64,000 bases of DNA from Actinomycetota bacterium (GTDB lineage Bacteria; Actinomycetota; Actinomycetes; S36-B12). The notes under the pieces are model-generated. The model made no database searches, was not told where the DNA came from, and was given only the letters and a program-made list of their open reading frames with translations. The stretch lies in NCBI GenBank assembly GCA_030650795.1, contig JAUSDJ010000031.1, positions 283,413-347,412 of the forward strand, written 5' to 3'. The position numbers and the translations under genes were made by a program. Positions 17,919-36,650 of the stretch are shown piece by piece (positions within the stretch are counted from its first letter, which is position 1; each line of letters opens with the position of its first letter).

Positions 17919-18410
17919 ATGGCAGACAGCAGTTTTGACATCGTGTCGAAGGTGGATCGGCAAGAGGCCGACAACGCCTTGAATCAGACGGCAAAGGAAT
18001 TGGCGCAACGATTCGACTTCAAGAACACCGATACCACCATTGAGTGGAAGGGTGAACTCGGCGTTGAAATCACTTCGGGAACTGAAGAGCGAGCCAAAGC
18101 CGCCCTTGATGTCTTCAAGGAGAAGATCATCAAGCGTGGCATGAGTTTGAAGAGCTTTGAAGCTGAGGATCCTCGCTCCTCGGGCAAGGAGTACAAGATC
18201 ACCGGAACCTTCAAGGCCGGGATCAATCAGGAGCAGGCCAAGAAGCTCGGAAAACTGATCCGTGACGAGGGGCCCAAGGCCGTCAAGGCTCAGGTGATCG
18301 GCGAGGAGCTGCGCATCACCAGCAAGAGTCGTGATGATCTTCAGGCCGTGCAGGAGTTAGTGCGAACAGCCGAGCTGGATTTCGCAACTCAGTTCGTGAA
18401 CTACCGCTAG
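17919..18410 (+). CDS. yajQ: YajQ family nucleotide-binding protein
   Basis: [23 protein letters not shown]...RFDFK...KSRDDLQAV...FVNYR. Confidence 0.95.
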
Positions 18411-18722
18411 CTACAGCGCTCGACGAGCCAGATCCTCGCGATCACTGACGAGTTCCGCGCGCGAATGCACCGACAGTCCTGCAACCTGGCTCCAGCTGAG
18501 TGCATCGGTTGGGCAGACGTCAATGCAGATGCCGCAGTACATGCACAGCGCGTAATCGATGCGGAAGGCATCGAGCACGTGCACGGTCTTTGGCCTGCGG
18601 CCTTCCGTGAGCTGCTCGGTATGCCGCTCGATTTCGATGCACACGCTGGGACAGTCACGCACGCAAATCAAGCATGAAGTGCAGGAATCCTCATGCAGGC
18701 CAATGGATTCTCGGACACTCAT
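18411..18722 (-). CDS. nuoI2: NuoI-like 2x[4Fe-4S] protein (short paralog)
   Basis: CTSCLICVRDCP and CMYCGICIDVCP; LDAFRIDY. Confidence 0.85.
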   Translation of the reverse strand: MSVRESIGLHEDSCTSCLICVRDCPSVCIEIERHTEQLTEGRRPKTVHVLDAFRIDYALCMYCGICIDVCPTDALSWSQVAGLSVHSRAELVSDREDLARRAL

Positions 18723-19063
18723 GACGGCACTGACTTACGCAAGGGCGGCGGGTCGGGGAAGAATCGGTGCAGAAGCGGACGTTGATCAGTGAGACCAGCG
18801 AAGCCAATGCCGAACATCTCCAGAGTCTCGCGCTCATACCAAGCTGCGCCGGCATACAGGCTCGTCAGTGATGCAACTTCGACCGAGACTGCTGTGGTGA
18901 CCAATGCCGACCGAGACTGTGACTGGTCCGTGACGCGTGCGACAACATCGACGTGGTCCCCACGATCGATGGCAGTCAGAAAGTCGAACCAGCCCAGGCC
19001 TTCAGACTTCAGTTGCGCGAAATGCTGCAGCCACACCTCTGAATCAATCCTTGTCGGCATCAC
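18719..19063 (-). CDS. nuoC2: NuoC-like protein (short paralog)
   Basis: FDFLTAID, SLTSLYAGAAWYERETLEMFGI, RPLL, PLRK. Confidence 0.85.
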   Translation of the reverse strand: MMPTRIDSEVWLQHFAQLKSEGLGWFDFLTAIDRGDHVDVVARVTDQSQSRSALVTTAVSVEVASLTSLYAGAAWYERETLEMFGIGFAGLTDQRPLLHRFFPDPPPLRKSVPS

Positions 19064-19473
19064 AGCGTTGGCACCAAGGCGAGCACACCATCAATAATTC
19101 GCCGGGGATCAGGTGGACAACCTGCGACATAGCCAGAGGTCTCCACGAGATCGGTGATGCCCTTGCGGACGGGCAGCGCATCCCAATACGGTCCGCCCGA
19201 GCTTGCGCAGGCGCCCACGGCAATGGCCAGCCGGGGCTCCCGGATTGACTCCCATTGAGCCTGTACCGCAGGCGCCAGAAGCTCAGTGACCGTGCCTGCA
19301 ACCAGAAGCACATCTATCCGGGCAACGCAGTCCTGAGGACTCTCGCGCGAAAGCAAACCCAAAGTCACAGCTGAGCCCACTTCGAGTGCGCAGCAGGCCA
19401 GTTCGCTCACATGGATGCGGATGGTCGGATCAGCGACAACGCGATACATCTCGGGGGCGAGTTCGGCGAGCAT
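19060..19473 (-). CDS. nuoB2: NuoB-like Fe-S protein (short divergent paralog)
   Basis: LACCALE, VAGTVT, GACASSGGPYWD, GCPP. Confidence 0.85.
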   Translation of the reverse strand: MLAELAPEMYRVVADPTIRIHVSELACCALEVGSAVTLGLLSRESPQDCVARIDVLLVAGTVTELLAPAVQAQWESIREPRLAIAVGACASSGGPYWDALPVRKGITDLVETSGYVAGCPPDPRRIIDGVLALVPTL

Positions 19474-19503
19474 CCACCGAGCGTAGCGAGGTGGTGGAGG
19501 GGA

Positions 19504-20499
19504 TCAGCCCGTGCGCGAAACGACGTAGTCGCACAGTTGCTCAAGGGCTTCCCGAGGAGCGCCCGCGGGCAATTCCACCAAGGACTTACGCGCATCATCG
19601 GCCCACCGACGAGCCTCAACCTGAGCCTCCTCCAAAGCGCTGTGCTGGCGCAGCAGTGCGAGCGCCTCGGCGTGCTCAATCGGATCCGGAAGTGGTCGCG
19701 AGAGCAGTTGTTGCAGTCTGCTGTCCGCAGTATCTGTGCTCGACAGTGCGATAAGCACCGCAAGAGTTGGAACTCCCTCGCGCAGGTCGGTTCCCGGAGT
19801 CTTGCCCGACTGCTCAGATTCAGAAGTGATGTCGACAAGATCGTCAGCGAGCTGGAATGCCACACCGATGCACTCGCCAAACTTGGTGAGCACCTCAACG
19901 GTCAGTTCGTCAGCACCGGAAAGCATCGCGCCGAACTGGCCAGCAGTTGCAATCAACGAACCAGTCTTGTCGGCCAGCACCTGCAAGTGATGCTGCACCG
20001 GATCAGCGCCATCGATCGGACCGACCGTCTCGCGAATCTGTCCGATGCACAGCCGTTCGAAGGTGCGGGCTTGGATGCGAACTGCCGAAGGACCGAGGTC
20101 GGCGAGGATGTCAGAGGCACGAGCAAAGAGAAAATCACCAGTGAGAATCGCGATCGAGTTGTCCCAACGAGCATTGGCCGAATCAGCACCGCGGCGCATC
20201 TTGGCCTCGTCCATCACATCATCGTGATAAAGCGTTGCCAGATGAGTCAGTTCAACAACCACGGCCGCTTCGATGACTTCTTTGCGCCTTGGATCCCCGA
20301 ACTGCGCAGCCAGCAAAGTCAGCAGTGGGCGGAAGCGCTTGCCACCCGCATCGACTAGGTGCGTTGAAGTCTCTGTGACAAATGGGTAGTCGCTCTTGAT
20401 CGCCTCATGCAGGGCGGACTCCACCTGCGCCATGGCCGAGGTGAGGGATGCCTCCAGCTCAGGATCGCCCGAAAGCAGATCCATGGGTTGAGAACTCAT
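19504..20499 (-). CDS. Polyprenyl diphosphate synthase (menaquinone side chain)
   Basis: GGKRFRP, HDDVMD (FARM), FQLADDLVD (SARM), GKTPGTDLREG. Confidence 0.93.
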   Translation of the reverse strand: MSSQPMDLLSGDPELEASLTSAMAQVESALHEAIKSDYPFVTETSTHLVDAGGKRFRPLLTLLAAQFGDPRRKEVIEAAVVVELTHLATLYHDDVMDEAKMRRGADSANARWDNSIAILTGDFLFARASDILADLGPSAVRIQARTFERLCIGQIRETVGPIDGADPVQHHLQVLADKTGSLIATAGQFGAMLSGADELTVEVLTKFGECIGVAFQLADDLVDITSESEQSGKTPGTDLREGVPTLAVLIALSSTDTADSRLQQLLSRPLPDPIEHAEALALLRQHSALEEAQVEARRWADDARKSLVELPAGAPREALEQLCDYVVSRTG

Positions 20500-20511
20500 G
20501 GTTACACGCTA

Positions 20512-22083
20512 CTAGCGAACGAAAACGCCGGCGTTGACGATCAGCTCGAGCAGCGGTTGCGGCACGATTCCCAGAAGGATGGTCACGGTGGCACCGGCAG
20601 CCAGAGCAATGGTCGTGAAGACGGAGGGGACGGCCACTGTGGCGGTGTCCTCCGTCGGATCGGTGAAGAACATCAAGACCACGACGCGAAGGTAGAAGAA
20701 GGCAGCGATCAACGAGGCGACTACGGCCACGATTACCAGCCAGGTATTGCCTGAGGCGATTGCCGCAGTGAACACGCTGAATTTCCCGATGAAACCGCTG
20801 GTCAGGGGGATGCCGGCCAGCGACAGCATGAACAGGGCGAAGACAGAAGCCACGAAGGGTGATTTGCGTCCCAAGCCAGCCCACTTGGAAAGGTGGGTAG
20901 CTTCGCCTGTGTCATCGCGCACCAACATGATGATGGCGAAGGCGCCGATGGTTGTGAAGGAGTAAGAGATCAAGTAGAAGATCGAACCTGCCAAACCTGC
21001 AGGCGATGCCGCGATGACACCCAGCAGGATGAAGCCAGCTTGCGCAATCGAGGAATAGGCCAGCATCCGCTTGATGTCGCTCTGGGTGAGCGCGATGATC
21101 GAGCCGACGAGCATGGTGAGAATCGCGATGACCCACATCATCGGAATCCAGTCCCAACGCATGCCGCCAAGGGCAACGTAGAACAGACGCAAGAGGGCAC
21201 CAAAGGCCGCGATCTTCACTGCGGCCGCCATGAAGCCCGTCAACGGGGTCGGCGCACCCTGGTAGACGTCTGGCGTCCACTGGTGGAAGGGCACGGCGCC
21301 GATCTTGAAGAGCAGACCAGCTGCAACAAGTGCAATGGCGATCAGGACGAGCGAACTCTGCCCCGGGATGGCCGAGAGCTTTTCGGCGATCACTGGGAAG
21401 GAGATCGAGCCGGAGAAGCCGTAGAGCAACGCTGACCCGTACAGGAAGAAGGCTGAAGAGAAGGCGCCAAGAACGAAGTACTTCAACGCAGCTTCCTGGG
21501 AGAGCAGGCGACGGCGACGGGCCATGCCGGCGAGCAGGTAGAGCGGCAAGGACATGACTTCAAGGGCCACGAACATCATCAGCAGGTCATTGGCTACCGG
21601 GAACAGCAGCATGCCGCCAACGGCAAACAGGAAGAAGGCCCAGATTTCGGTCTGGAAATAGCCGCGCGCAGTGAATTGACGCTCATCCTCAGACCCCGGG
21701 AGGGCGGAGGCCCGCGGGGCAAAGGCATCGCCGCTTGGATCAAGCCCGCGCTCAGCCATCAGCAGCGCACCAAGGATCGCGATGACCACGATCGTGGCCT
21801 GCATGATCAAGCCGGGACCATCAACAACCAGTGCACCTTGGCCGACGACTGCCCGATCGCCATGCAGGCTGATGATCGCGATCAGTGCGGCAATGAGCGT
21901 TGTGAACACCAGGATCAACTGCGTTGGGCGTCGTGCTGCTCGCGGCAGGAAGGCCTCGATGAGAACCGAGACAACGCCAGCGCCGAGCACGATCAGGATC
22001 GGAGCCAGCAGTCGATACTCGATCGTTGGCATCACCCAAGTAGTGGTGTCGGCCGCCTGGACCACGGCACTCACGGCGATCAC
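20512..22083 (-). CDS. nuoN: NADH-quinone oxidoreductase subunit N
   Basis: EAALKYFVLGAFSS, FKIGAVPFHQWTPDVYQGAP, KRMLAYSSI. Confidence 0.96.
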   Translation of the reverse strand: MIAVSAVVQAADTTTWVMPTIEYRLLAPILIVLGAGVVSVLIEAFLPRAARRPTQLILVFTTLIAALIAIISLHGDRAVVGQGALVVDGPGLIMQATIVVIAILGALLMAERGLDPSGDAFAPRASALPGSEDERQFTARGYFQTEIWAFFLFAVGGMLLFPVANDLLMMFVALEVMSLPLYLLAGMARRRRLLSQEAALKYFVLGAFSSAFFLYGSALLYGFSGSISFPVIAEKLSAIPGQSSLVLIAIALVAAGLLFKIGAVPFHQWTPDVYQGAPTPLTGFMAAAVKIAAFGALLRLFYVALGGMRWDWIPMMWVIAILTMLVGSIIALTQSDIKRMLAYSSIAQAGFILLGVIAASPAGLAGSIFYLISYSFTTIGAFAIIMLVRDDTGEATHLSKWAGLGRKSPFVASVFALFMLSLAGIPLTSGFIGKFSVFTAAIASGNTWLVIVAVVASLIAAFFYLRVVVLMFFTDPTEDTATVAVPSVFTTIALAAGATVTILLGIVPQPLLELIVNAGVFVR

Positions 22084-23645
22084 GGTTGGGTCCCTTCAGT
22101 GGTGGTGCTCGTCACGCCAATAGTCGGAGGCGGATCGGTTTGACCCGTGATGGACATGACGGTGTCGACGGCGGGATTGATGACATTCAGCAGAGGCGTC
22201 GGGTACAGCCCGAGGAAGATCGTCAAGGCAACAATCGGAATCAAGGCAGTGAACTCTCGCACCCCAAGATCCCTGATGCCTGCTAGGCCTTCACCAACTG
22301 AACCGGTCATCGACTTCTGGTAAACGCGCAGCACATAGGCAGCCGTGATGACGATGCCGAGAGTGGCGACGCCGCCCACCCACAAATACCGCTGGAAAGT
22401 GCCCAGCAGCACCATGAACTCGCCGATGAATGACACCAGCCCAGGCAGGGCCAAGGAGGACAGCGCGGCAAACAGGAAGAAGCCCGCCAAGACTGGTGCC
22501 GGCTTGTTCACACCGGAGTAATCCGACAGCAGGCTCGAACCGCGATGACGCTGCATCAGGAAGCCAGCAGTCAAGAAGAGCGCGGCGGTGGACAACCCAT
22601 GCGCCACCATGTACACAACGGAGCCGCTGATGCCGATCGTGGTGAAGGCGAAGATACCCAGCGCTATGAAGCCAAAGTGCGACATCGACGAGTAGGCGAA
22701 CAAGCGCTTCATGTCGTTTTGACCCAGCGCCACAAATGCGCCATAGAAGATGCCTACCAAAGCCATGCCAATGATCACCGGCGCATAGAACTCACTTGCG
22801 GCAGGGAAGATCGGCAGGCAGTAGCGGATCATGCCGAAGGTGCCGACCTTGTCGAGTACGCCAATCAGCAGTACCGCGGTGCCGGGCTTTGCCGCACTCG
22901 CTGCATCGGGAAGCCAGGTATGGAATGGCCACAAGGGAGCCTTGATTGCAAAGGCAAAGAAGAATCCAAGGAAGAGGATCTTCTGCGTTGCCGGATCAAT
23001 GTCGAGGCCAACGAGTTGGAACCAATTGAAGGTCCCCTGTCCTGAGATCTGGCCAGAGACAACGAACAAACCAATCATCGCTGCGAGCATGAACAAGCCG
23101 CCGAGGAGGCTGTAGATCAGGAACTTCATTGCCGCGTACGAACGCTCCGGGCCGCCGTAGCGCCCGATCATGAAGTAGACCGGAATCAGCATGGCTTCGA
23201 AGAAGACGTAGAAGAGGAATACGTCGGTGGCTGCGAAGACGCCGATCATCAAGGTCTCCAGCACCAAGATCAGAGCGAAGTAGCCCTTGACGCTGCCGAC
23301 CGTCTCGGAGTTCGGCTCTTCGACATCGTTCCACCCAGCAAGGATCGTGATCGGCACCAGAATTGCCGCCAGCGCAATCAGCACAAGGCCGATGCCATCG
23401 ACTCCCATGGAGTAGGTGATGCCAAAGGCCGGGATCCACTCGTGATATTCGACGAGCTGGAACGGCTCACTGGTGGAGCCGTTGAACTGCAAGGCAATGA
23501 CAACGGTCAACCCCAGAGCCACGACGGAGATGGCCAGCGCGAGTTGCTTCGCCAACAGCGGGCGCGATTTGGGCAGCAAGGCCACCACAACACTGCCGAC
23601 AAGCGGCACGGCTGCGAGAACGGTCAGCCAGGGGAACTCGTTCAC
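22080..23645 (-). CDS. nuoM: NADH-quinone oxidoreductase subunit M
   Basis: FYVFFEAMLIP, KAPLWPFHTWLPDA, KRLFAYSS; GTG at 23645 overlaps nuoL stop. Confidence 0.96.
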   Translation of the reverse strand: MNEFPWLTVLAAVPLVGSVVVALLPKSRPLLAKQLALAISVVALGLTVVIALQFNGSTSEPFQLVEYHEWIPAFGITYSMGVDGIGLVLIALAAILVPITILAGWNDVEEPNSETVGSVKGYFALILVLETLMIGVFAATDVFLFYVFFEAMLIPVYFMIGRYGGPERSYAAMKFLIYSLLGGLFMLAAMIGLFVVSGQISGQGTFNWFQLVGLDIDPATQKILFLGFFFAFAIKAPLWPFHTWLPDAASAAKPGTAVLLIGVLDKVGTFGMIRYCLPIFPAASEFYAPVIIGMALVGIFYGAFVALGQNDMKRLFAYSSMSHFGFIALGIFAFTTIGISGSVVYMVAHGLSTAALFLTAGFLMQRHRGSSLLSDYSGVNKPAPVLAGFFLFAALSSLALPGLVSFIGEFMVLLGTFQRYLWVGGVATLGIVITAAYVLRVYQKSMTGSVGEGLAGIRDLGVREFTALIPIVALTIFLGLYPTPLLNVINPAVDTVMSITGQTDPPPTIGVTSTTTEGTQP

Positions 23646-25537
23646 GAAAGCCTCACCAGTACCAGTGCCAGGACAACCAAGACGGCGCCACCGACCATCG
23701 AAAGTGCATAGGAACGGATGAAGCCGGTCTGGTACTTGCGCATGCGTCCTGACAATCCGCCAACTGCAGCTGCACTGCCATTGACGAAGCCGTCGACCCA
23801 GGCGTTGTCGAACCACACCAGGAAGCGCGACAACCAGAAGGAGGGCTGCACGACCAGGACATCATTGATCGCATTGCCATACAGCTCGGCACGAGCCGCA
23901 CGTGTGAGCAGGTTGCCATGCGGCTCGGCGACGGGGACCTCCCGGCGGGCGTACTGAATCCATCCGAACGCAGCACCAGCGAGGACGACCGCCAGCGTGA
24001 TGACCATCAACAGGATTTCTGGGATCGCGATTTCGTGCTCCTGGTAGCCGACAACAGGCTCAAGCCAAGTTTCGATATTCCCCCAGAACAGCAGCGCCAT
24101 GCCCAGGAAGGTCGCCCCGATGGCCAAGATGATCAACGGGATGGTCATCACAGCCGGTGACTCATGCGGATGCGCATCGTCTTCCCAGCGCGCCTTGCCG
24201 AAGAAGGTCATCGCGACCATGCGAGTCATGTAGAAGCCTGTGATGCCAGCAGCAAGCACGGTGCACACGCCAACCAGGTTGTTGCTCTCAAATGCCGCGT
24301 GAACGATGCTGTCTTTAGACCAGAAGCCCGAGAACGGCGGGATGCCCATGATCGACAAGGTGCAGATCAAGAAGGTGCCGAAGGTAATCACCATCAGCGC
24401 GCGCAATGCACCATAACGACGCATGTTCACGTTGTCCTTCATTCCGTGCATGACCGAGCCCGCACCAAGGAAGAGTCCAGCTTTGAACACACCGTGGGTC
24501 AGCAGGTGGAAGATGGCGAAGACGTAGCCGACCGGCCCCAGGCCGGCCGCGATCACCATGTAACCGATCTGGCTCATCGTGGAACCCGCAAGAGACTTCT
24601 TGATGTCGTCTTTGGCGCAACCGATGATCGCGCCCATGAACATAGTGATCACCCCAATCACGACAACAGCTGTCGCAGCCCAGGCAGCAGCATCGAAGAT
24701 CGCATTGCTACGCGTGATCAAGTACACGCCAGCGGTGACCATGGTCGCCGCGTGAATCAGTGCCGAGACCGGAGTTGGGCCCTCCATTGCATCAAGCAAC
24801 CAAGCCTGCAGCGGGAACTGCGCAGACTTGCCGCAAGCAGCCAAGAGAAACAGCAGGCCAATGGCCGTGAGCGTGCCTTCACTTGCCTGTCCGGTGCTGC
24901 TGAAGACATCCTGGAAGGAGACCGACCCGAAGGTCACGAACAGGACCATGATCGCCAGACTCAGGCCGACGTCACCAACTCGGTTGATGATGAATGCCTT
25001 CTTGGCGGCAGCTGCCGCAGCCGGCTTGTACTGCCAGAAGCCGATGAGCAGATAACTCGCAAGACCAACGCCTTCCCAGCCGACATACATCAGCAGGTAG
25101 TTGTTGGCCAGAACGAGCAAGAGCATCGCTGCAACGAAGAGATTCAGGTAGCCGAAGAACTTGCGACGATCAGGGTCGTGGCTCATGTAGCCAAGTGAGT
25201 AGATGTGAATCAGCGAACCGACAATGGTGATCAGCAGCACGAAGACCATTGAGAGCTGATCAAGTTGGAAGGCCATGTCGACCTTGAAACTTCCCGCAAA
25301 GACCCAGCTGTAGATGTTGTCGTTGAAAGTCCGATCTTCAGCGCCTTGGCCCATCATCTCCACGAGCATCCAGATCGCCAGGCAGGCGTCGACCACAACA
25401 GTGAAGACGCCCAGATATGGCCCCCACTTATTGGTCGTGCGCCCACCGAGCAGCAGGATCGCCGCGCCAACCAGTGGCAGCGCAATCAGCAACCACAGCA
25501 GCGAGAACACGCCGGTCGCCGGCATCAACTCTTGCAC
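23642..25537 (-). CDS. nuoL: NADH-quinone oxidoreductase subunit L
   Basis: GWEGVGLASYLLIGFW, GKSAQFPLQAWLLDAMEGPTPVSALIHAATMV. Confidence 0.97.
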   Translation of the reverse strand: MQELMPATGVFSLLWLLIALPLVGAAILLLGGRTTNKWGPYLGVFTVVVDACLAIWMLVEMMGQGAEDRTFNDNIYSWVFAGSFKVDMAFQLDQLSMVFVLLITIVGSLIHIYSLGYMSHDPDRRKFFGYLNLFVAAMLLLVLANNYLLMYVGWEGVGLASYLLIGFWQYKPAAAAAAKKAFIINRVGDVGLSLAIMVLFVTFGSVSFQDVFSSTGQASEGTLTAIGLLFLLAACGKSAQFPLQAWLLDAMEGPTPVSALIHAATMVTAGVYLITRSNAIFDAAAWAATAVVVIGVITMFMGAIIGCAKDDIKKSLAGSTMSQIGYMVIAAGLGPVGYVFAIFHLLTHGVFKAGLFLGAGSVMHGMKDNVNMRRYGALRALMVITFGTFLICTLSIMGIPPFSGFWSKDSIVHAAFESNNLVGVCTVLAAGITGFYMTRMVAMTFFGKARWEDDAHPHESPAVMTIPLIILAIGATFLGMALLFWGNIETWLEPVVGYQEHEIAIPEILLMVITLAVVLAGAAFGWIQYARREVPVAEPHGNLLTRAARAELYGNAINDVLVVQPSFWLSRFLVWFDNAWVDGFVNGSAAAVGGLSGRMRKYQTGFIRSYALSMVGGAVLVVLALVLVRLS

Positions 25538-25552
25538 GTGAGTTTCCTTGTC

Positions 25553-25852
25553 CTAGTACTTCAGCAGATTGGGTTCGTCGATGGACGCAGAACGGCGCGA
25601 TCGGAAGATCTGGACGATTATCGCCAGACCAACCACGACCTCGGCAGCGGCAACCACCATCACAAAGAAGGCGACCACCTGACCATCGAGATTGCCGTTC
25701 ATGCGAGCGAAGGCAACGAACGCCAGGTTCGAGGCGTTCAACATGAGTTCCACACTCATGAACACCACGATCGCGTTGCGTCGTACCAGCACGCCCAGTG
25801 CTCCGATACCGAACAGCAGAGCCGAAAGAACGACGTAATTGGAGGGATTCAC
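25553..25852 (-). CDS. nuoK: NADH-quinone oxidoreductase subunit K
   Basis: [28 protein letters not shown]. Confidence 0.97.
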
Positions 25853-26619
25853 AGCGAATCAGCCTCCTCGATTGCGTGAACGTCCTCGATATCAACTGGC
25901 GCTATGTCGCCGCGCGCGCGCAGCGCCCCAGGGATGCTGAGTTCGGTTGGCGAGCCATCCGGAAGCAATGCGGGAGTATCGACGGCGTTGTGGCGCGCGT
26001 AAATACCGGGGTTGGGACGATTGCCCGGATGCTCATCGCCCAGGAATCGAGCCTTCGACAGCTCTGCCTGAGTTGGCTTGGGCTTCCAGTGTTCGCGGTG
26101 CGCCAGAACCATAGCGCCAAGGGCCGCGGTGATGAGCAGAGCCGAAGTGACCTCGAAGACCACCAGAAAGTCAGTGAAGATCAGACGCGCGACACCCGGC
26201 ACGTTGCCGCCGTCTGTTCGGTTCGCAAACTCCAGACCCGTCGCCGGAATTCCAGCGAGCGAGCTGCCCACGCCCCAGACCAAAATAAGGATCAAAGCCA
26301 AGCCAAGCAGCATGGCTGCCCAGCGCTGGCCCTTTATGGTCTCAATGAGCGAGTCAGAAGCATCAACTCCAACGACCATGATGACGAATAGGAACAGCAT
26401 CATCACGGCGCCGGTGTAGACGATGATCTGCGCCATACCCAGGAACGGTGCTGAGTTCGTGATGTACAGAACGGCCAAGGTGATCATTGTCAGCGCCATC
26501 CACAACGCGCTGTGCACTGCCTTGCGCGAGGTGATCAAGCCAATGGCTCCAAGAACCGAGAGCACTGCGCAGACCCAGAAGACAACGGCTTCTCCGGTGT
26601 TGGTCGGGGTGTCGATCAC
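25849..26619 (-). CDS. nuoJ: NADH-quinone oxidoreductase subunit J
   Basis: [32 protein letters not shown]. Confidence 0.95.
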
Positions 26620-27158
26620 GGGTTCACCCCCTGATCAACAACGTCAGCTCCCTTGATCCGATTCGCGTAGTAATCCTGCTCCGTTGATCCCTCGACCATG
26701 GCGTGTGGCGGGGCGACCATGCCCGGCAGCATTGGAGCCAGAAGGTCCTTCTTCTCAAAGATGAGATCTGCGCGATTGTTGTCAGCAAGTTCAAAGACAT
26801 TGGTCATCGTCAGCGCACGAGTTGGGCAGGCCTCAATGCACAGGCCGCAGAAGATGCAGCGGGTGTAGTTGATCTGGTAGACGCGGCCATAGCGCTCCCC
26901 TGGCGAGAATCGCTCGTCTTCGGTATTGGCGGCACCCTCGACCAGAATCGCATCGGCCGGGCAAGCCCACGCACACAACTCGCAGCCCACGCACTTCTCC
27001 AGGCCATCTGACCAGCGGTTGAGCTGATGACGACCATGGAAGCGGGGCTTGGGCGGGAACTTCGCAGCATCCTCGGGGTACTGCTCTGTGACCACCTTCT
27101 TGAACATGGTGCGGAAGGTGACCCAGAATCCCCGGACTGCTTGGGGCAGCTCAGCCAT
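26616..27158 (-). CDS. nuoI: NADH-quinone oxidoreductase subunit I
   Basis: [12 protein letters not shown] and [12 protein letters not shown]; ATG at 27158. Confidence 0.97.
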
Positions 27159-28452
27159 CGATGGCCTCCTGCGTAGTGATGGTTGACGGGCCACGGCGGC
27201 TGGTCAGATTCGACTCCTGGCCCGGCATTGGAGGTATTGGGTAGCCGCCGGCCATCGCATCAAATGGTTGAACTGCGGTCTCGGCGGCATCCAGTTCATC
27301 AGCTGCAGCCTTGCGATCGGCTCGGGCTTGCAGCAACCAAGAAGCCGCGAGCAGGACGCCGATGACGATCGCTCCGCTCACCAGAATCTCGGTCGTATTC
27401 AACGTGACCTCATTGCGCAATGCGCGTGCGGTGGCAACAATCAGGATCCACGCGATCGAGACTGGGATCAGCACCTTCCAGCCAAACTTCATGAACTGGT
27501 CGTAGCGCAGGCGAGGCAAAGTGCCGCGCAGCCAGATGAAGATGAAGATGAAGATCTGCACCTTGGCCAGCCACCAAAGGATTGGCCAATAGTCAGTATT
27601 CGAGGCCTCCCACAAAGACAATGGCCATGGAGCCCGCCAGCCACCCAAGAACAAGGTGGTCGCCAATGCCGAGACCGTCACCATGTTGATGTACTCGGCC
27701 AAGAAGAAGAGCGCGAACTTCATCGAGGAGTACTCAGTGTGGAAACCGCCGACGAGCTCGCCTTCTGCCTCGGGAAGGTCGAAGGGTGCGCGGTTGGTCT
27801 CACCCACCATTGCCGTGACGTAGATCAAGAAGGAAGGCAGCAGGATGACCGCGAACCAGACTGGCTCCTGCGCGCTCACAATTTCAGAGGTAGACATTGA
27901 ACCCGCGTAGAGGAACACCGCGACGAAGGACAAGCCCATCGCGATCTCGTAGGAGATCATCTGTGCGCTGGAGCGCAGCCCACCAAGCAGTGGATAGGTG
28001 GAGCCGGATGCCCAGCCAGCCAGGACGATGCCGTAGATGCCAATTGACGCAATCGCAAGCACGTACAGCACGGAGACCGGGAAATCGGTGAGTTGCAGCG
28101 GGGTGTAGACGCCAAACATATTCACGACCGGGCCGAACGGAATCACTGCGAAAGCGACAAAGGCCATCGTCGCTGAGATGATCGGCGCGATCCAATACAC
28201 CGCAAGGTGCACACCCTTGGGAACGATCTCTTCCTTCAATGCGAGCTTCACGCCGTCCATCAAGGACTGCAGCAGCCCGAAGGGACCAACGCGGTTTGGT
28301 CCGATGCGGTTCTGCATGCGAGACACCACGCGACGTTCCCACCAGATCGTGAACAAGGTGAGCAGCACGAGCATCACGAAGATGCCAAGCACCTTGACGA
28401 TCACGATCCACCAAGGATCAGTGCCGAAGAATCCGAACTGGCCGTCGGTCAT
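27151..28452 (-). CDS. nuoH: NADH-quinone oxidoreductase subunit H
   Basis: [49 protein letters not shown]. Confidence 0.97.
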
Positions 28453-30806
28453 GCCGCACCTCCAGCAGTGACGTCAACAGCAGCGCCAACGCGCGCGCCG
28501 AGATCTGTGTAGATCGAGCAGCCAGGAGCATTCATCGGGACGAAGACGACATTGTCGAGAACATCACCGACTTCAACTGGCAAGTGCACTGAGCCAAGGG
28601 GGCCGGTGACCATGACTCTGGCTGGCGACCCGAGCTTGGCGAACGCTGAGGCAGAAAGAACGGCCGCGACTGGACGCGCTGTGGCAGCGAGATGTGGTTC
28701 GCCCTCTTGCATGACACCGGCATCGAGCAGTTCTCGCCACGAGGCAAGACGGAATCCGGATTCGGATGCTGCGGGCGAGGCGAGATTTGGAGCCTCGGCG
28801 CGGGGGCCGGCCCATGAGCCAAGTCCCGCGAGTTCGCGTCGAATGCCCGGGCCATCCCAAGCACCAGCAGTGACTCCCATTGCCCGAGCGATCATGCCGA
28901 GCACGGTGGCGTCGCTCATCGCCAATGCGTCCTTGAATACTTGGGCGAAGGGACGAGCGCGACCTTCCCAGTCAACGAAGGTGCCTGACTTCTCGGTGAC
29001 CAGAGCAACAGGAAGCACCACATCAGCGAACTCAGTGATCTCCGAGTGATGGTGGTCCAAAGACACGATGAACGATGTTCGCTCAAGAGCCGCGTCGGTG
29101 ACAAACGGCGAGGGTATATCGGCGGGATCAACTCCTGCGATAATCAGCGCCTTCAAAGCGCGACGGCTTGCGGCGTCAAGAACTTCAGCTGCAGCAGCGC
29201 TAGGCAAGGCATCAGCGCTGATACCCCAAGCTGCGGCAACTTCATTTCGCGCTTGCGAATCGGTGAGCGGACGTCCGCCGGGCAACAGGCCCGCAAGTGC
29301 TCCGGCATCCAGTGCTCCGCGCTCGCCGGCGCGACGAGGCACCCAAGCCAGCGCAGCACCGGTAGCCGCAGCCAACTCACTTACGGCCGAGGGGGCACCC
29401 ACACTTGCAGCGATGCGCTCGCCGACAAGAATGACAGCGCCTGGTTGTGCAAGAGCCTCGCGAATGTCTGCTGAGAGTTCACGGATTGCCAATGCTTCTT
29501 CACCAGGTACGACAGACAGCAGAGTGCCGCCGAGCTTGGCCAGGCCCTTGGAGCCTCGAGTAGCAATGCTGGTCACGCGAGTGACGGACTTGCGAAGGCG
29601 CAGAAAGACGATCGGCGACTCATCTTCAGGCTCGAAGGCAATGAGCAGAACGAACGGTGCCTGCTCAAGAGACGCATATGTCGTGGTGAGCGACGAGCCA
29701 GCAACAAGGGCGCGAAGGAACTGGGCTTCTTCTTCGGAATGCGCACGCGAACGGAAGTCAATGTGATCAGTGCCCAGAACTCCACGCGCAAACTTCGCGT
29801 AGCCGTAGGCGTCTTCTTGAGTGAGCCGACCGCCGGTGAGAACACCAGTTGCCGAACCCGCTGCTGCGAGCCCACGCGCCGCAACATCGATCGCCTCTGG
29901 CCACGAAGCGGGACGAAGTTCGCCATCCTCGCGAATGAGGGGCGTGGTGATGCGGCTCTCGGTGAGGTAGGCGAAGGCGAAACGACCCTTGTCGCAGTTC
30001 CAGTCTTCGTTGACTTCTGGGGTTTCCCAAGCCAGGCGGCGGGTGACTTCACCACGTCGGGAGTCTGTGCGCAAGGAGCAACCCGAAGCGCAGTGCTCAC
30101 ATGTGGTGGGCGTGGACACAAGGTCAAAGGGACGCGATCGGAATCGGTACTCGGCGCTGGTCAAAGCGCCGACCGGGCAAATCTGAATGGTGTTGCCAGA
30201 GAAGTAGGAATTGAAGGGCTCACCGGTGGCAATGCCGACCTGCTGATTCGAGCCACGCTCGAGCAGCTCGATCATCGGGTCACCAGCGATCTGCCCAGAG
30301 AATCGCGTGCATCGGGCGCATGAAACACAGCGCTCGCGGTCGAGCAGGATCTGTGCGCTGATGGGGATTGGCTTGTCGAAGGTGCGCTTCTCGCCATCGA
30401 AGCGTGACTCTGCACGACCCGCTGACATTGCTTGGTTCTGCAGTGGGCATTCGCCGCCCTTGTCACAGACCGGGCAATCAAGTGGGTGGTTGAGAAGCAG
30501 GAATTCGAGCACGCCCTCTTGCGCGTCACGAGCAACGGGCGAGGATTGCTGGGTGCGGATGGTCATGCCGTCGCTGACCACCTGCGCGCACGCTGGCTGC
30601 GGCTTGGGCATGCCCTCGACCTCGATGAGGCAGGCTCGACAGGCGGCTACTGGCTCAAGCAATGGGTGATCGCAGAAGCGTGGAATTTCAACGCCGATCA
30701 TCTCCGCGGCACGAATTGCCAGAGTTCCCTTAGGAACCTGCAACTCCACGCCATCGATGGTGACACTGATGGTCGCCACTACTTCTTGCTTGAGAATTTC
30801 AGTCAT
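28449..30806 (-). CDS. nuoG: NADH-quinone oxidoreductase subunit G
   Basis: [56 protein letters not shown]. Confidence 0.97.
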
Positions 30807-32107
30807 CGCGCAACGGCTCCCGCAAAGACATAAGAGGCCACCGGATCGAACTGCTCGTCAACCGGGGTCTGGGTGGCCGCGATGAATTCATCACGGAAGT
30901 ACTGCAGTGCTGCAGGAAACGGCGTTGCCGCAGCGTCACCAAGGGCGCAGAAGGATCGACCAGCAATCTGATTGCATGCACTGACGAGCAGATCCAGATC
31001 GGATTCCGCGCCGTGTCCGTGCTCAAAGGTTTCCAAGATGCCGGTGATCCAGTAGGTGCCCTCGCGACAGGGAGTGCACTTGCCGCAGGACTCATGCTTG
31101 TAGAACTCCAACCATCGACTGACGGCCTTGACCACACTGACCGTGGTGTCGAAGATCATCGGTGTGCCCGTGCCGAGCATGGTTCCGGCGGCGGCCATTT
31201 CTTCGTAGGCCATTGGGATGTCAAGGTGATCGGGAGTCAGCATCGGCACTGAAGATCCACCCGGCAGCCAGAACTTCACCTCGCCGCCATTGCGAACCCC
31301 GCCGGCGTAGTCCAAGAGTTCGCGCATCGTGATGCCCAGCGGAGCTTCGTAGATGCCTGGACGATTCACATGGCCCGAAACCGCCCACACCTTGAAACCA
31401 GGTGACTTTTCAGTGCCGAACTGACGGAACCAATCGACACCGCGATCAAGGATGTAGGGGATATTGCAGATGGTCTCGACGTTGTTGATCACTGTTGGCG
31501 ATGCGTACAGGCCCGCGACTGCTGGAAACGGTGGCTTCAAGCGCGGCTGACCGCGGAAGCCCTCGAGAGAATCCAAGAGCGCTGTTTCTTCGCCACAGAT
31601 GTATGCACCCGCACCGGCGTGCACCACGAGCTCGAGATCGAAACCACTACCGAGGATGTTCTTGCCGAGATAGCCAGCACGACGTGCTTCGGCTGCTGCG
31701 CTTGCAACCTTGCGCAGAGCATTGGGCACCTCACCACGGATGTAGATGAAGGCATGACTGGCACGAATGGCAAAAGCAGAGATGATGACGCCTTCAACCA
31801 GCGCATGCGGGTTGGCCATCATGATCGGAATGTCCTTGCAGGCACCCGGCTCTGACTCATCGGCGTTGACCACCAAGTAGTGCGGCTTGCCGTCGTTCTG
31901 CGGAACGAAACTCCACTTCAAGCCGGTAGGGAAGCCAGCGCCTCCGCGTCCGCGAAGTCCGGAATCCTTGATCGTGGTGACGATCGAGTCAGGATCAAGA
32001 GTGAGTGCATTCTGCAGGGCTCGGTAGCCACCAAAGCGCTTGTAGCCATCGATCGTGTAGAGATCTGGAACATCCCAGTGCTCAGTGATGACTGGAGTCA
32101 GCGACAT
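30803..32107 (-). CDS. nuoF: NADH-quinone oxidoreductase subunit F
   Basis: GLRGRGGAGFPTG, NADESEPG, GAYICGEETAL, CGKCTPCREG. Confidence 0.97.
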   Translation of the reverse strand: MSLTPVITEHWDVPDLYTIDGYKRFGGYRALQNALTLDPDSIVTTIKDSGLRGRGGAGFPTGLKWSFVPQNDGKPHYLVVNADESEPGACKDIPIMMANPHALVEGVIISAFAIRASHAFIYIRGEVPNALRKVASAAAEARRAGYLGKNILGSGFDLELVVHAGAGAYICGEETALLDSLEGFRGQPRLKPPFPAVAGLYASPTVINNVETICNIPYILDRGVDWFRQFGTEKSPGFKVWAVSGHVNRPGIYEAPLGITMRELLDYAGGVRNGGEVKFWLPGGSSVPMLTPDHLDIPMAYEEMAAAGTMLGTGTPMIFDTTVSVVKAVSRWLEFYKHESCGKCTPCREGTYWITGILETFEHGHGAESDLDLLVSACNQIAGRSFCALGDAAATPFPAALQYFRDEFIAATQTPVDEQFDPVASYVFAGAVAR

Positions 32108-32109
32108 GT

Positions 32110-32763
32110 TCAGCTCTCCTGTCCGGGCGTTGGGGCAGACATGTTGTGCTCCTTGGCATAGCGCAATCCGGCGAGCATCTTGTCGTCAACTGAGTTGCCT
32201 TCACCGGCCAGTCCGTCATCGGGAAAGGCCAAGCTGAACTGAGTTGCCCGAAAATCGCGGATGACTGGACCGCGAGTGGATTCAACTTGCTCGCCCCGAG
32301 CCAGTCGCTCGACCACCCCAACGGCAGAAGTAGGAGTGACGTCGTCCATGAACTCCCAGTCGACTGTCATCACTGGTGCATGTGTGCAAGCGGCTTGGCA
32401 TTCGATGCGCTCAAGAGAGAAGCCGCCATCGGCAGTGGGTTCGTTGTGGCCAACGCCGAGATGCTCTGACAGGGCGTCGTAGACAGCGTCGCCTCCAAGC
32501 AATGCGCACAGGGTGTTCGTGCACACGCCGATATGGTGCTTGCCGACCGGCTTGCGCTTGTACATCGTGTAGAAGGTCGAGACGCTAGTGACCTCGGCAG
32601 GTGTGAGGCCAAGAACTTCGGCACAGATCGCGATGCCTTCAGTCGTGACCTCGCCTTGTTCGCTTTGCACAAGGTGCAGCATCGGCAGCAGCGCTGAACG
32701 CGATTTCGGGTAGAGCCCGGCAAGCTCGCGCAGGCGCTCAATGGTCTGTTCGCTGATGGCCAT
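32110..32763 (-). CDS. nuoE: NADH-quinone oxidoreductase subunit E
   Basis: STFYTMY, VCTNTLC, ECQAAC [2Fe-2S] ligands. Confidence 0.96.
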   Translation of the reverse strand: MAISEQTIERLRELAGLYPKSRSALLPMLHLVQSEQGEVTTEGIAICAEVLGLTPAEVTSVSTFYTMYKRKPVGKHHIGVCTNTLCALLGGDAVYDALSEHLGVGHNEPTADGGFSLERIECQAACTHAPVMTVDWEFMDDVTPTSAVGVVERLARGEQVESTRGPVIRDFRATQFSLAFPDDGLAGEGNSVDDKMLAGLRYAKEHNMSAPTPGQES

Positions 32764-32783
32764 GTCTCTTCCTCTCGATCGCG

Positions 32784-34145
32784 TTAGCGATCGACTCCGC
32801 CCATGACGGGATCGATGCTTGCGACCGCAGCGATGACGTCAGCGATCTGACCGCCCTCGCACATTGCCGCGACAGACTGCAGATTCGTGAACGAGGGATC
32901 GCGGAAGTGCACGCGGTATGGCCGAGTTCCGCCAGAGCTCACGAGATGACAGCCAAGCTCGCCTCGGGGTGACTCGATGGCGGTGTAGACCTGCCCAGCG
33001 GGAACACGGAAGCCTTCAGTGACCAGCTTGAAATGATGGATCAGGGCTTCCATTGACTCAGACATGATTTCGCGAATGTGATCCAGCGAATTGCCTTGGC
33101 CGTCGCTGCCAACGGAAAGCTGTGACGGCCAAGCGATCTTCTTGTCCTCGATCATGACCGGCCCGGGCTCTAAACGATCGAGGGCTTGTTCGACGATGCG
33201 CAATGATTGCTCCATCTCACGGATTCGAATGAGGAATCGACCGTAAGCATCCGAAGTATCGGCAGTGACGACATCGAACTCGTAGTTCTCGTAGCCGCAG
33301 TACGGCTGAGTCTTGCGAAGATCATGTGGGAAGCCAGTTGCGCGCAGAATCGGTCCGCTGATGCCCAAGGCCATGCAGCCCGTCAGATCCAGAAAGCCAA
33401 TGCCTGAAGTGCGGCCCATCCAAATGTTGTTGTCAATAAGCAGATTGCCCGTGTCCTTCAAACGAGAGCGCAGTAGCGGAATCGTGTCGCGGATCTGCTG
33501 GACACCATCGGCCGGGAAATCAGTTGCAACGCCGCCGGGCCGGATGTACGCATTGTTCATGCGCAAGCCGGTGATCAATTCAAAGAGTTCAAGTACCAAT
33601 TCACGTTCGCGGAATCCGAAGGTCATCGCTGTCAGGGCACCAAGTTCCATCCCACCTGTTGCAAGTGCGACAAGGTGCGAGGAGATGCGATTGAGCTCCA
33701 TCATGATCACGCGAATAATCGTTGCGCGCTCAGGTATTTGCTCGGTTACGCCGAGCAATTTCTCTATTGCCAGGCAGTAGACCGCTTCGTTGTAGAAGGG
33801 CGCAAGGTAGTCCATGCGCGTGGCATAGGTGACGCCCTGCACGAACGAGCGGTACTCCATGTTCTTCTCGATGCCGGTGTGTAGGTAGCCGATGCCACAG
33901 CGGGCTTCAGTGACAGTTTCGCCATCGATCTCAAGGATGAGTCGGAGCACGCCATGAGTCGAAGGGTGCTGAGGTCCCATGTTGACCACGATGCGCTCGG
34001 TTTCGCCCTCGGGAGCAACGGTGATGGAATCCCAATCGCCGCCGCCGATATTGAATATGCGCCCTTCGGAATCGTCATTGGCGCCCGCGTAGGCATCATT
34101 GGACTGCGAGGGGGCGCTCGTGTATTTGACGTCTTCTGCGGTCAT
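32784..34145 (-). CDS. nuoD: NADH-quinone oxidoreductase subunit D
   Basis: [45 protein letters not shown]. Confidence 0.97.
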
Positions 34146-34888
34146 GAGTTGTACGACCTCCGCTGATCTGGTGGCGGAATGGTCGCACCCTTGTATTCAA
34201 CTGGGATGCCACCGAGTGGGTAGTCCTTGCGCTGCGGATGCCCGGGCCAATCATCAGGCATCAGGATTCGAGTCAACACTGGGTGGCCGTCGAACACGAT
34301 GCCGAAAAGATCGAAAGTCTCGCGCTCATGCCAGTCGTTCGTGGGGTAGACACCAACAGATGAAGGGATGTGCGGATCGCTGTCGGGCGCTGTGACTTCA
34401 ACACGGACGCGGCGGTTATGCGTGATGGAAAGCAGGTGGTAGACCGCGTGAAATTCGCGGGTCAGATCGCTTGGGTAGTGAACGCCGCTAACTCCACTTG
34501 AGAATTCGAAGCGAAGCCCCGGCTCATCGCGCAGTGCGGACAGCACGCCGACCAGCAGATCGCGGCGAATGAAGAAACTGATCTCTTCACGATCAACGAC
34601 GACCTTCTCAATTGCGCTGCCAGAGTCGATGCCGCGTGCCGTCAGGGAAAGTTCGAGTTCATCGGCGACTTCGTCGAACCAGCCGCCGTAGGGACGAGCG
34701 CTCGGCTCTGGCATGTGCATGAGTTCAACGAGTCCACCAAAACCACTGGTGTCACCTGAACCTTCAACTCCGAAGGCACCCTCGCGGACGTGAAATACTT
34801 CGAACTGGCTGACTCCCTCTGGTACTACAGGGACAGGCACTACAGGGACAGGCACTACTGACACCGGCGCAGCCGGCGTATCGGTCAT
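34142..34888 (-). CDS. nuoC: NADH-quinone oxidoreductase subunit C
   Basis: [37 protein letters not shown]. Confidence 0.96.
34824..34858. repeat. 15-nt tandem repeat (2.3 copies) in nuoC 5' region
   Basis: actacagggacaggc x2 + actac; encodes [12 protein letters not shown]. Confidence 0.9.
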
Positions 34889-35439
34889 CGCAGAAGCCCC
34901 TTGCTTTCCAAGGTGGTGGGAGCAACAAGGGCGTGTGCCTCGAGTTCACGCATCTGCTCGCGTCGGTGTGCGCCGAGCTTCATGTCCTGGATCTCCTCAT
35001 GCAGCTTGAGAATTGCGTCGATCAGCATTTCTGGGCGAGGAGGGCAGCCGGGCAGATAGATATCGACCGGCACGACGTGGTCAACGCCTTGCACGATTGC
35101 GTAGTTGTTGAACATGCCACCGCTTGAGGCACAGACGCCCATGGCTAGCACCCACTTGGGGTTGGGCATCTGGTCGTAGATCTGGCGCAGAACAGGAGCC
35201 ATCTTCTGGCTGACACGACCGGCGACAATCATGAGATCGGCCTGGCGTGGCGAAGCCCGGAAAACCTCCATGCCAAAGCGCGCGATGTCGAAGCGAGGAC
35301 CACCGACGGCCATCATTTCAATTGCACAGCAGGCCAGTCCAAAAGTGGCGGGCCAAAGGGAGCCCTTGCGGGCATAGCCGGCAACCTTTTCAACCGTCGT
35401 CAGCAAGACCCCCGACGGCAGATTCTCTTCAAGGCCCAT
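34885..35439 (-). CDS. nuoB: NADH-quinone oxidoreductase subunit B
   Basis: [34 protein letters not shown]. Confidence 0.97.
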
Positions 35440-35451
35440 GACTACTCCCGG

Positions 35452-35811
35452 TCAATCCCACTCAAGACCACGTCGACGCCATACGTAGGCGTACACAACG
35501 AGGACGGTTGCGATGAACAGCACCATTTCAACCAAGCCAAAAATGGCCATGTGATCAAAGGCGACTGCCCAGGGATACAAGAACACAATCTCAATGTCGA
35601 ACACGATGAACAGCATCGCCGTCAGGTAGTACTTCACCGGAAATCGACCACCACCAACAGGTTGCGGGGTCGGTTCAATACCGCATTCGTAGGCATCAAC
35701 CTTTGCGCGGTTGTAGCGCTTTGGGCCGGTCAGCGGTGCGATGACCGCTGAGAACAGTGCGAAGGCGAAAGCCAGTGCGCCCAATACCAGGATTGGGGTA
35801 TAGACGTTCAC
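35452..35811 (-). CDS. nuoA: NADH-quinone oxidoreductase subunit A
   Basis: YECGIEP, KYYLTAMLFIVFDIEIVFLYPWA. Confidence 0.97.
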   Translation of the reverse strand: MNVYTPILVLGALAFAFALFSAVIAPLTGPKRYNRAKVDAYECGIEPTPQPVGGGRFPVKYYLTAMLFIVFDIEIVFLYPWAVAFDHMAIFGLVEMVLFIATVLVVYAYVWRRRGLEWD

Positions 35812-35907: not shown

Positions 35908-36600
35908 TTAAGGGTTCACTGCACGATGGATGGCCACGATGCCGCCGGTCAAGTTGCGCCATTGCACGCCCAGAAATCCGCTGGCCAGCAACTCATCTGC
36001 TAACTCAGCTTGAACTGGCCACGCGCGAATCGACTCAGCCAAGTACACGTACGCCTCTGGGTTACTTGCGACCTTGGTAGCAACTGCAGGCAGTGCGCGC
36101 ATCAGATATTCGGTATAGACCTTGCGAATCGGTGCCACCGTTGGATGCGAGAACTCGCAGATGACGAGCCGACCGCCTGGTCGAAGCACCCGTCGAAATT
36201 CAGCCAGCCCCGCCGCGCGATCAGAGAGGTTGCGAAGCCCAAAGGAGATCGTGGCCGCGTCGAAGGAATCATCGCGGTACGGCAGATGCAGCCCATCACC
36301 AGCGACAAAGGGAAGATTCGGCTGGCGTTGGCGTCCAACGCGGAGCATTCCAAGCGAGAAATCCGTCGGGAATACGTGCGCGCCAGCCTCGGCAAAGGGC
36401 ACGCTTGATGTGCCCGTTCCGGCGGCAAGATCAAGAATCAGCTCACCTGGCTGCGGGCGAACGGCTGAGACCACAGCTCGTCGCCAGATTCGGGTCTGCC
36501 CCAGGGCCAACACGTCATTGGTGATGTCGTAGCGCTGAGCCACTCCGTCGAACATGGCCGCTACGTCGGTCGGCGTTTTGGTCAGGTCGGCTCTTATCAC
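35908..36600 (-). CDS. menG: Demethylmenaquinone methyltransferase
   Basis: [41 protein letters not shown]. Confidence 0.95.
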
Positions 36601-36650
36601 GCCCGCATCCTTGCACCGCCAGCTCGCATCACCACATCTAGGCTGGTGTC

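Follow-up and report, generated by a model that had tools for sequence, protein, structure and literature searches.

A three-gene remainder of the actinobacterial nuo2 cluster, its unlinked NuoD2 and a putative free-standing paralog of the complex I Q-module

At the end of a cluster of menaquinone and complex I genes, an actinobacterium of the lineage S36-B12 (Actinomycetota bacterium, assembly GCA_030650795.1) carries three short genes that resemble nuoB, nuoC and nuoI. They are found in a stretch of 64,000 nucleotides of the contig JAUSDJ010000031.1 (positions 283,413 to 347,412 of the forward strand; this whole stretch is called the window, and coordinates refer to it unless another locus is named). 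The question raised by this locus is where three Fe-S subunits of complex I come from and what they do apart from a membrane arm of their own. Judged by gene order and tree placement, the triad nuoB2-nuoC2-nuoI2 (products B2, C2 and I2) is what remains of the second nuo cluster of actinobacteria (nuo2; A2-B2-C2-H2-I2-J2-K2-L2-M2-N2, with D2 elsewhere in the genome) after deletion of A2, H2 and J2-N2. By their sequences, B2, C2, I2 and an unlinked NuoD2 (D2) are a complete four-subunit paralog of the Q-module, or 'connecting fragment', of complex I. That these four proteins form a free-standing, Q-module-like electron-transfer unit with three [4Fe-4S] clusters, detached from quinone reduction of the NuoH type, seems to us somewhat probable and is the interpretation to which we incline.

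The two junctions of the triad are overlaps of 4 nt (GTGA between B2 and C2, ATGA between C2 and I2), by which the translation of the three genes is coupled. In Pfam, B2 matches PF01058 with 59.3 bits (cut-off 27), the match covering the model positions 39-128 only, C2 matches PF00329 with 62.4 bits (cut-off 22.5) and I2 matches the Fer4 families of 4Fe-4S ferredoxins. The top NCBIfam models are NuoB (family TIGR01957) for B2, NuoC (TIGR01961) for C2 and NuoI (TIGR01971) for I2, all of them below the curated cut-offs: 79.6 vs 116 and 76.8 vs 142.7 (NuoB subfamily models) for B2, 43.4 vs 122.45 bits for C2 and 66.3 vs 113 bits for I2. Since each protein ranks the expected subunit first and yet scores far under the cut-off, the three appear to be genuine but divergent paralogs. 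The cluster ligands of B2, C27, C28, C89 and C119 (the last one followed by P120; CC...C...CP), align with the ligand positions of solved NuoB chains and are invariant across 41 homologs, as is the core motif GGPYWD. I2 contains two CxxCxxCxxxCP motifs of the type of clusters N6a and N6b (C14/17/20/24-P25 and C60/63/66/70-P71), and all twelve Fe-S cysteines are present in B2 and I2. The family matches, the invariance and the I2 motifs bear out the first-pass annotation, made from the letters of the window, which had described three overlapping paralogs of complex I subunits with all their Fe-S ligands. The AlphaFold2 model of B2 (predicted local distance difference test, pLDDT, of 83) is related by Foldseek to the NuoB/NDUFS7 chains of complex I with a template modelling (TM) score of 0.62-0.66.

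The three proteins are shorter than their canonical counterparts. In the alignment with canonical NuoB (32% identity), only 24 residues precede the CC motif of B2 and the loop FRASPRQAD is replaced by SRESPQDCVARID, this loop being variable among the triad B2 proteins; both the shortened N-terminus and the lost loop had been recognized in the first reading. I2 displays 34% identity with canonical NuoI, of which about 60 N-terminal residues, with the amphipathic segment, are absent. This truncation is real, but it had been taken as a special trait of the locus, and the I2 proteins of full-type nuo2 clusters have the same loss. C2, with 114 aa, has less than half the length of canonical NuoC (248 aa), and a canonical NuoC query gives no match to C2 in a tblastn search of the whole genome. 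In this genus, C2 is also without the C-terminal tail WPGAKEPGES..RRRxxPPGVP found in other C2 proteins.

The genome searched comprises 2.64 Mb and is 98.9% complete. With all canonical subunits as tblastn queries, no second NuoA, NuoH, NuoJ or NuoK was detected in the whole genome, each of them being found once, and the absence of membrane partners that had been read from the window extends in this way to the genome. A single NuoH was also found in five of five other triad genomes, which come from five families. The genome contains no second NuoE, and its additional matches to NuoF and NuoG are remote (27% identity) and lie at unlinked sites. Outside nuoA-N, genes similar to antiporters and to NuoH occur in one place only, a cluster of Hyc/Ehr type, similar to Rv0082-0087 of Mycobacterium tuberculosis and localized outside the window on contig C40 (C40:192880-199912, that is L008:6880-13912). 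It is composed of NuoB-, NuoL- and NuoH-like genes, a small membrane open reading frame (ORF), a NuoM-like gene and a NuoC-D fusion with an N-terminal match to NiFeSe_Hases, and its neighbours are a SulP/STAS permease and a multicopper oxidase. The extra NuoB match of this cluster occurs in one of 13 genus genomes, namely this one. A link between the triad and the Hyc/Ehr cluster was considered and rejected, the cluster being sporadic in the genus and the triad universal. A partnership with a 2-oxoacid:ferredoxin oxidoreductase (OFOR, korAB) was rejected as well: the domain POR_N (PF01855) is absent from this 98.9%-complete genome, the control search being positive in 10 of 14 reference genomes, and the neighbours of the triad are a polyprenyl synthase and yajQ.

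Three NuoD-like genes are present in the genome, i.e. the canonical nuoD, the NuoC-D fusion of the Hyc/Ehr-type cluster and a lone nuoD2, which adjoins DUF2520, panC and folate genes. The triad had been described as being without NuoD; this has to be revised, as a NuoD2 of 372 aa is encoded 57 kb away and is co-conserved with C2 in 162 of 301 genomes. D2 does not reach the cut-offs of the NuoD equivalogs (family TIGR01962; scores of 239.7 vs 360 and of 221.8 vs 459), and its alignments with the short NuoD and FpoD models (NF008974, NF040602) run from end to end. A gap of ~41 aa in D2 was at one time a candidate for a special deletion and was dropped in view of these end-to-end alignments. The AlphaFold2 model of D2 (pLDDT 87.8, predicted TM score 0.89) matches the 49-kDa chains of complex I with Foldseek TM scores of 0.82-0.87. 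For the quinone site we assume the numbering His38, Tyr87 and Asp139 of Thermus thermophilus Nqo4, with the D2 equivalents matched by motif only: the equivalent of His38 is retained, Tyr87 is replaced by a tryptophan (W81, invariant in 43 homologs) and the loop of Asp139 is deleted. D2 keeps both histidines of the HPxxH loop and has HPTQH and GDADR at the positions of the Ni-Fe motifs, with no cysteines there. Concerning the gene model, the long ORFs of D2 (plus strand) and of the divergent DUF2520/Rossmann gene (minus strand) overlap by ~258 nt (L007:6372-8441 = C28:358371-360440), and one of the starts must therefore be later; a gene caller recorded D2 as 274 aa, and its homologs have 361-383 aa.

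Orthologs of D2 (39-86% identity) occur throughout the order wherever B2 occurs, always far from B2, and D2 was present in ten of ten genomes tested, which represent both the triad and the full nuo2 types. The genes of B2, C2, I2 and D2 are jointly absent from the families f5 and f6. To the refuting condition attached to the first reading, that nuoD2 and membrane paralogs sit elsewhere in the genome, the answer is divided: nuoD2 does exist and the membrane paralogs do not, so that there is no normal second complex either.

With C2 as query, a sample of 301 genomes of Actinomycetia was surveyed; these genomes are related to each other and the counts overstate their independence. A C2-like gene was detected in 215 of them at E<=1e-3 and in 174 at E<5e-7. 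Using the thresholds E<5e-7 for C2 and E<=1e-40 for D2, both genes are found together in 162 genomes, C2 only in 12 (10 of which are less than 90% complete), D2 only in 7 and neither in 120. Among the 162 genomes with both genes, 103 contain at least two NuoH (full nuo2) and 57 contain exactly one (triad form), and two NuoH were found in just 5 of 108 genomes without C2 and D2. Roughly one in five of the sampled actinobacterial genomes has the triad form, which is distributed among at least eight families. Judged by this co-occurrence, by the joint loss in f5 and f6 and by the matching split of the trees (see below), D2 is a member of the predicted module. No genome surveyed was seen to contain both a triad and a full nuo2; third NuoB-like genes of the family f25, considered as a second triad, were rejected because they are the small subunit of a [NiFe] hydrogenase. 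Candidates for a module without complex I (G081, G155, G306, G053 and G157) turned out to be fragmented assemblies, and in G081, G155, G306 and G157 the missing NuoH is attributed to an assembly gap because their NuoB loci carry the canonical nuoA-D.

The best 28 C2 loci are divided into 15 B2-C2-I2 triads and 13 full clusters (A2-B2-C2-H2-I2...). Where the flank reaches far enough, a convergent yajQ comes after several loci of both forms; genome G055 for example displays a complete full nuo2, A2-B2-C2-H2-I2-J2..N2, and then the convergent yajQ. The position of the triad, between nuoA-N/polyprenyl synthase on one hand and yajQ on the other hand, matches the position of nuo2. Since the locus is the same as that of the full cluster, the triad is regarded as its positional ortholog minus A2, H2 and J2-N2. 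The origin from a Streptomyces-type second nuo cluster, which had been suggested in the first reading, is upheld by this synteny and by the placement of B2 in the tree. The second cluster of Streptomyces is described as nuoA2, B2 and H2-N2 without an N-module, nuoD2 being encoded at a separate site, and the papers give it no clear function (PMC3765725, PMC8388888, PMC9239103). What has been called the 'partial nuo operon' in marine actinomycetes is nuo2 as well (PMC6676996). A full-text literature search, which found the nuo2 papers and had most subscription journals outside its reach, gave no description of the triad form. A search of genome contigs for cultured triad hosts recovered only uncultured metagenome-assembled genomes (MAGs) and then canonical NuoB of other phyla. 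Some contigs of freshwater actinobacterial MAGs (L095, L113, L146, L103, L114 and L140) carry a triad-type B2 under the titles 'Bifidobacterium breve' or 'Rubrivirga/Rubricoccaceae', and these records look mislabelled or mis-binned. In G149, a genome with full nuo2, nuoH2 is split over three frames by two frameshifts (L074:2160-3145), which are explained either by a membrane subunit in decay or by long-read indel errors (89% completeness, 7 contigs).

In the tree of B2, the triad proteins constitute one long-branched clade (support 100/99) beside the short-branched B2 of full type. This clade is localized among the B2 proteins of full-type nuo2, away from canonical NuoB. The tree of the unlinked D2 shows the same triad/full split (88/96), again with longer branches in the triad genomes. 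The families f27 and f33 hold both forms, and the approximately unbiased (AU) tests on family monophyly are mixed (p=0.10 for f27 and p=0.003 for f33). With the long branches, the mixed tests and the two families that hold both forms, the trees are compatible with either one or several reductions.

Within the genus, the triad ORFs are intact in 12 of 12 genomes, with lengths of 135-158, 114-117 and 103-108 aa for B2, C2 and I2, respectively. The 4-nt overlap is kept at 21 of 24 junctions, the other three being one 2-nt gap and two 1-nt overlaps. The triad proteins evolve faster than their neighbours (49-91% identity in the genus vs 77-99%). The pairwise ratios of nonsynonymous to synonymous substitution rates (dN/dS), calculated only from genus pairs with unsaturated dS, are of 0.05-0.15 for B2, 0.10-0.19 for C2 and 0.02-0.12 for I2, compared with values up to 0.05 (<=0.05) for yajQ and of 0.03-0.08 for the polyprenyl synthase. 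By these estimates, the triad is clearly under purifying selection and not decaying. A dN/dS check had been suggested together with the proposal that the triad is repurposed and not a decaying remnant; constraint was found (0.02-0.19) and no relaxed decay, and the proposal of repurposing agrees with the intact genes.

Some departures from the canonical subunits are common to the full and triad forms of nuo2, namely the I2 without its N-terminal ~60 residues, the short NuoD type and the tryptophan in place of Tyr87. Others are specific to the triad lineages. Compared with the full type, conservation has fallen most at four places of triad B2, namely the N-terminal strand/helix (RRYSLWVFN), the residues that follow the CC motif, the PSST loop (..PGPRQAD) and the extension at the C-terminus, and at one place of triad D2, the loop YPLELGA-TPIFYAFRE, which contains the equivalent of Asp139 and is deleted in the D2 of this genome. 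In this genus, the beta1-beta2 loop of D2 is changed from GPQHPSTHG to GMLHPTQHA. The full-type nuo2 keeps the N-terminus and the PSST/PRQAD loop of B2 and the Asp139 loop of D2 nearly invariant. In established complex I structures, the segments relaxed in B2 and D2 are elements of the docking to NuoH and NuoA and of the quinone chamber; these roles of the NuoB and NuoD loops are taken from published structures and matched here by motif only. Because elements for docking to NuoH/NuoA and for the quinone site lost conservation in the triad lineages, an alternative input module for the main complex I, which was one of the roles initially envisaged for the triad, is disfavoured.

In the mechanism that we propose, B2, C2, D2 and I2 would assemble into a membrane-independent module, either soluble or loosely peripheral. 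I2 would carry two [4Fe-4S] clusters and B2 one, D2 and C2 being the scaffold. Electrons from a low-potential donor would enter at I2, cross the three clusters and reach an acceptor at the now open pocket between B2 and D2 that formerly served quinone, and menaquinone would no longer be reduced through a tunnel of NuoH type. A more specific version of this mechanism is tentative and a little less probable than an even chance: the Q-module may have reverted to a membrane-independent B2-C2-D2-I2 oxidoreductase, with the opened quinone pocket serving a new, non-quinone substrate. If true, the classical path that led from a soluble hydrogenase to a membrane complex would be reversed, and a new class of soluble redox enzyme would be defined, kept by about one in five of the Actinomycetia sampled and, among them, by abundant freshwater plankton.

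Several points weigh against a free-standing unit of these four proteins. No genome without canonical complex I was seen to carry the triad or D2 (the families f12 and f61 have none), and this strict co-occurrence also fits a dependence on the canonical membrane arm. In G032, a 100% complete genome of the same order, a D2 ortholog (43% identity) occurs without B2, C2 and I2; it is the only complete genome among those surveyed with D2 alone, and D2 may for this reason have a separate role. The rise of entropy in the triad lineages could be partly due to a different taxon sample, and the grouping of the triad proteins in one clade may be an artefact of their long branches.

The dependence on complex I takes its most explicit form in a hybrid enzyme, where B2-C2-D2-I2 would replace NuoB-C-D-I, and NuoEFG with them, on the canonical arm of NuoA, NuoH and NuoJ-N. 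Such a hybrid, which we regard as unlikely, would be an NDH-1-like and NADH-independent menaquinone reductase (driven for instance by ferredoxin), sharing one proton-pumping arm. It agrees with the restriction of the module to genomes with canonical complex I, with the location directly downstream of nuo and menaquinone genes, with the two histidines of HPxxH retained in D2 and with the nature of four-subunit Q-modules, which are natural docking units; a nuo/nuo2 hybrid machine was also suggested for Streptomyces (PMC9239103). What argues against it is that precisely the docking and quinone parts (the N-terminus of B2, the PSST/PRQAD loop and the Asp139 loop of D2) lost conservation or were deleted, and that B2, just 32% identical to canonical NuoB, shows no convergence on it. 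The opposite simplification, in which B2-C2-I2 alone is a three-protein Fe-S carrier and NuoD2 has an unrelated or independent role, is in our opinion rather improbable. D2 is indeed never adjacent to the triad, G032 has D2 without it and 12 genomes have C2 without D2; against this, 10 of these 12 genomes are incomplete (<90%) and 162 genomes have both, the families f5 and f6 lost all four genes together, and the D2 tree and the relaxation of the D2 quinone site both track the triad/full split of the unlinked B2. Moreover, in the structures of complex I and of [NiFe] hydrogenases, and thus in every solved relative, the NuoB-type domain of cluster N2 is buried against the NuoD-type subunit.

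Slightly less probable again is an accessory or regulatory role for canonical complex I, as stress isoforms, as a helper of Fe-S delivery or assembly or as a redox sensor, and not as an enzyme with its own substrate. The strict co-occurrence with complex I, the fast evolution of the triad relative to its neighbours and the fact that no substrate-binding module is identifiable would fit such a role, but none of the 12 Fe-S cysteines varies (for the four of B2, this holds across many families) and nothing regulatory is seen in the neighbourhood. The whole three-cluster relay is retained, which points to a through-transfer of electrons. That the triad is a decaying and non-functional remnant of nuo2 is hardly credible. 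Its proteins are truncated in comparison with the canonical subunits and evolve several-fold faster than yajQ and the polyprenyl synthase, as a remnant would; opposed to this are the low dN/dS, the intact genes with lengths and overlaps kept in 12 of 12 genus genomes, the distribution in at least eight families, the invariant ligand cysteines and the conserved promoter motif.

Returning to the free-standing four-protein unit, the reduced nuo2 isolates the electron-transfer core and reveals what selection keeps after the loss of the proton-pumping arm, in a cluster whose function is unknown even in Streptomyces. It represents a natural experiment on the modularity of complex I and offers a small, probably soluble four-protein target for electron paramagnetic resonance (EPR), structure determination and partner search. 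The membership of the unlinked NuoD2 changes which construct has to be expressed. The triad is also widespread among the uncultured actinobacteria of freshwater, whose metabolic models are affected by respiratory genes that lack an explanation.

The coordinates of all features are given in Table 1. The predicted leaderless promoter of the triad, already proposed in the first-pass annotation, is supported by the conservation of its motif, as TACGCT-N6-ATG/GTG recurs in 9 of 12 genus genomes despite a divergent upstream sequence. A scan for sigma-70 consensus promoters and terminators found nothing, such a scan being uninformative for actinobacterial leaderless promoters. In 7 of 12 genus genomes, all seven with the promoter motif, a gene of the opposite strand encoding an EamA/RarD-type transporter (316 aa) is inserted between the synthase and B2; with this gene in between, the triad of those seven genomes must be transcribed on its own. 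In the window, the synthase is immediately upstream of B2 with a gap of 30 nt. At the other end, the stop of I2 (18411-18413) abuts the stop of the convergent yajQ (18408-18410), the flush end having been correctly noticed before. The convergent yajQ follows triad loci and full nuo2 loci in other families too and marks the conserved position of nuo2. Since menG/menF, nuoA-N, the synthase and the triad are adjacent, they are considered as one supercluster for menaquinone and complex I, which ends with the synthase and the triad. Within nuoA-N, the longest ORF of nuoM (22080-23816, 578 aa, GTG start) overlaps the end of nuoL (23642-25537) by 175 nt, and its real start is probably later.

Table 1. 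Position of the triad, of NuoD2 and of the neighbouring features (window coordinates unless a contig or locus is named).
Feature	Coordinates	Strand	Description
nuoB2	19060-19473	minus	NuoB/PSST paralog of 137 aa, truncated; has the four Cys for a [4Fe-4S] cluster of N2 type
nuoC2	18719-19063	minus	minimal NuoC (30-kDa) paralog, 114 aa
nuoI2	18411-18722	minus	NuoI paralog, 2x[4Fe-4S] ferredoxin type, 103 aa
nuoD2	G000:C28:359322-360440 (outside the window, 57 kb from the triad)	plus	372 aa; PF00346, 149 bits
Predicted leaderless-type promoter	19474-19485	minus	-10 hexamer TACGCT (19485-19480), 6-nt spacer, ATG at 19473
yajQ	17919-18410	plus	DUF520, cyclic-di-GMP-binding family; PF04461, 182 bits; NF003819, 184 bits
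Long-chain polyprenyl diphosphate synthase	19504-20499	minus	menaquinone side chain; PF00348, 201 bits; best NCBIfam NPPPS_Mycobact, 368 bits
nuoA-N operon	20512-35811	minus	canonical complex I, from the ORF map; sole complex I membrane arm of the genome
menG and menF	35908-37937		demethylmenaquinone methyltransferase and isochorismate synthase; flank the start of nuoA-N
EamA/RarD-type transporter of relatives	L014:429-1379, also L015-L020		corresponds to window 19474-19503

Among the known systems, the group 4 [NiFe] hydrogenase-related Hyc/Ehr clusters (M. tuberculosis Rv0082-0087 type) contain distant homologs of NuoB, C, D, H, L and M. The Hyc/Ehr cluster of this genome differs from the triad in being separate and self-contained, with its own NuoB-like and NuoCD-like genes, and D2 is without the Ni-Fe cysteine motifs. 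The cyanobacterial NDH-1, Fpo and the 11-subunit Nuo11 of Bacillus type are also devoid of NuoEFG; D2 fits the short NuoD/FpoD models, and a non-NADH donor is expected at the NuoI-type subunit, as here. These enzymes keep a full membrane arm and a site for quinone or methanophenazine, whereas the triad module has neither.

The closest system is nuo2 itself (S. coelicolor SCO4599-4608, and the 'partial nuo operon' of Salinispora, Kocuria and marine Streptomyces), with which the triad shares the chromosomal position, the short C2, the I2 without N-terminal helix, the unlinked short NuoD2 with its tryptophan and the absence of NuoE/F/G. It differs by the lack of all seven membrane genes (A2, H2, J2-N2), by the much faster evolution of B2 and D2, in which the segments of the quinone site and of membrane docking are lost, and, in this genus, by the loss of the C2 tail. 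Finally, the Q-module of complex I (NuoB/C/D/I; the NDUFS7/S3/S2/S8 intermediate of mitochondria) is composed of the same four subunit types with the same three [4Fe-4S] sites (equivalents of N6a, N6b and N2), the NuoD and NuoB folds being confirmed by the models. Here Tyr87 is a tryptophan, and neither the Asp139 loop, which is deleted, nor the PSST loop is kept; with no dedicated membrane arm and no N-module, the triad module appears to be an end product and not an intermediate.

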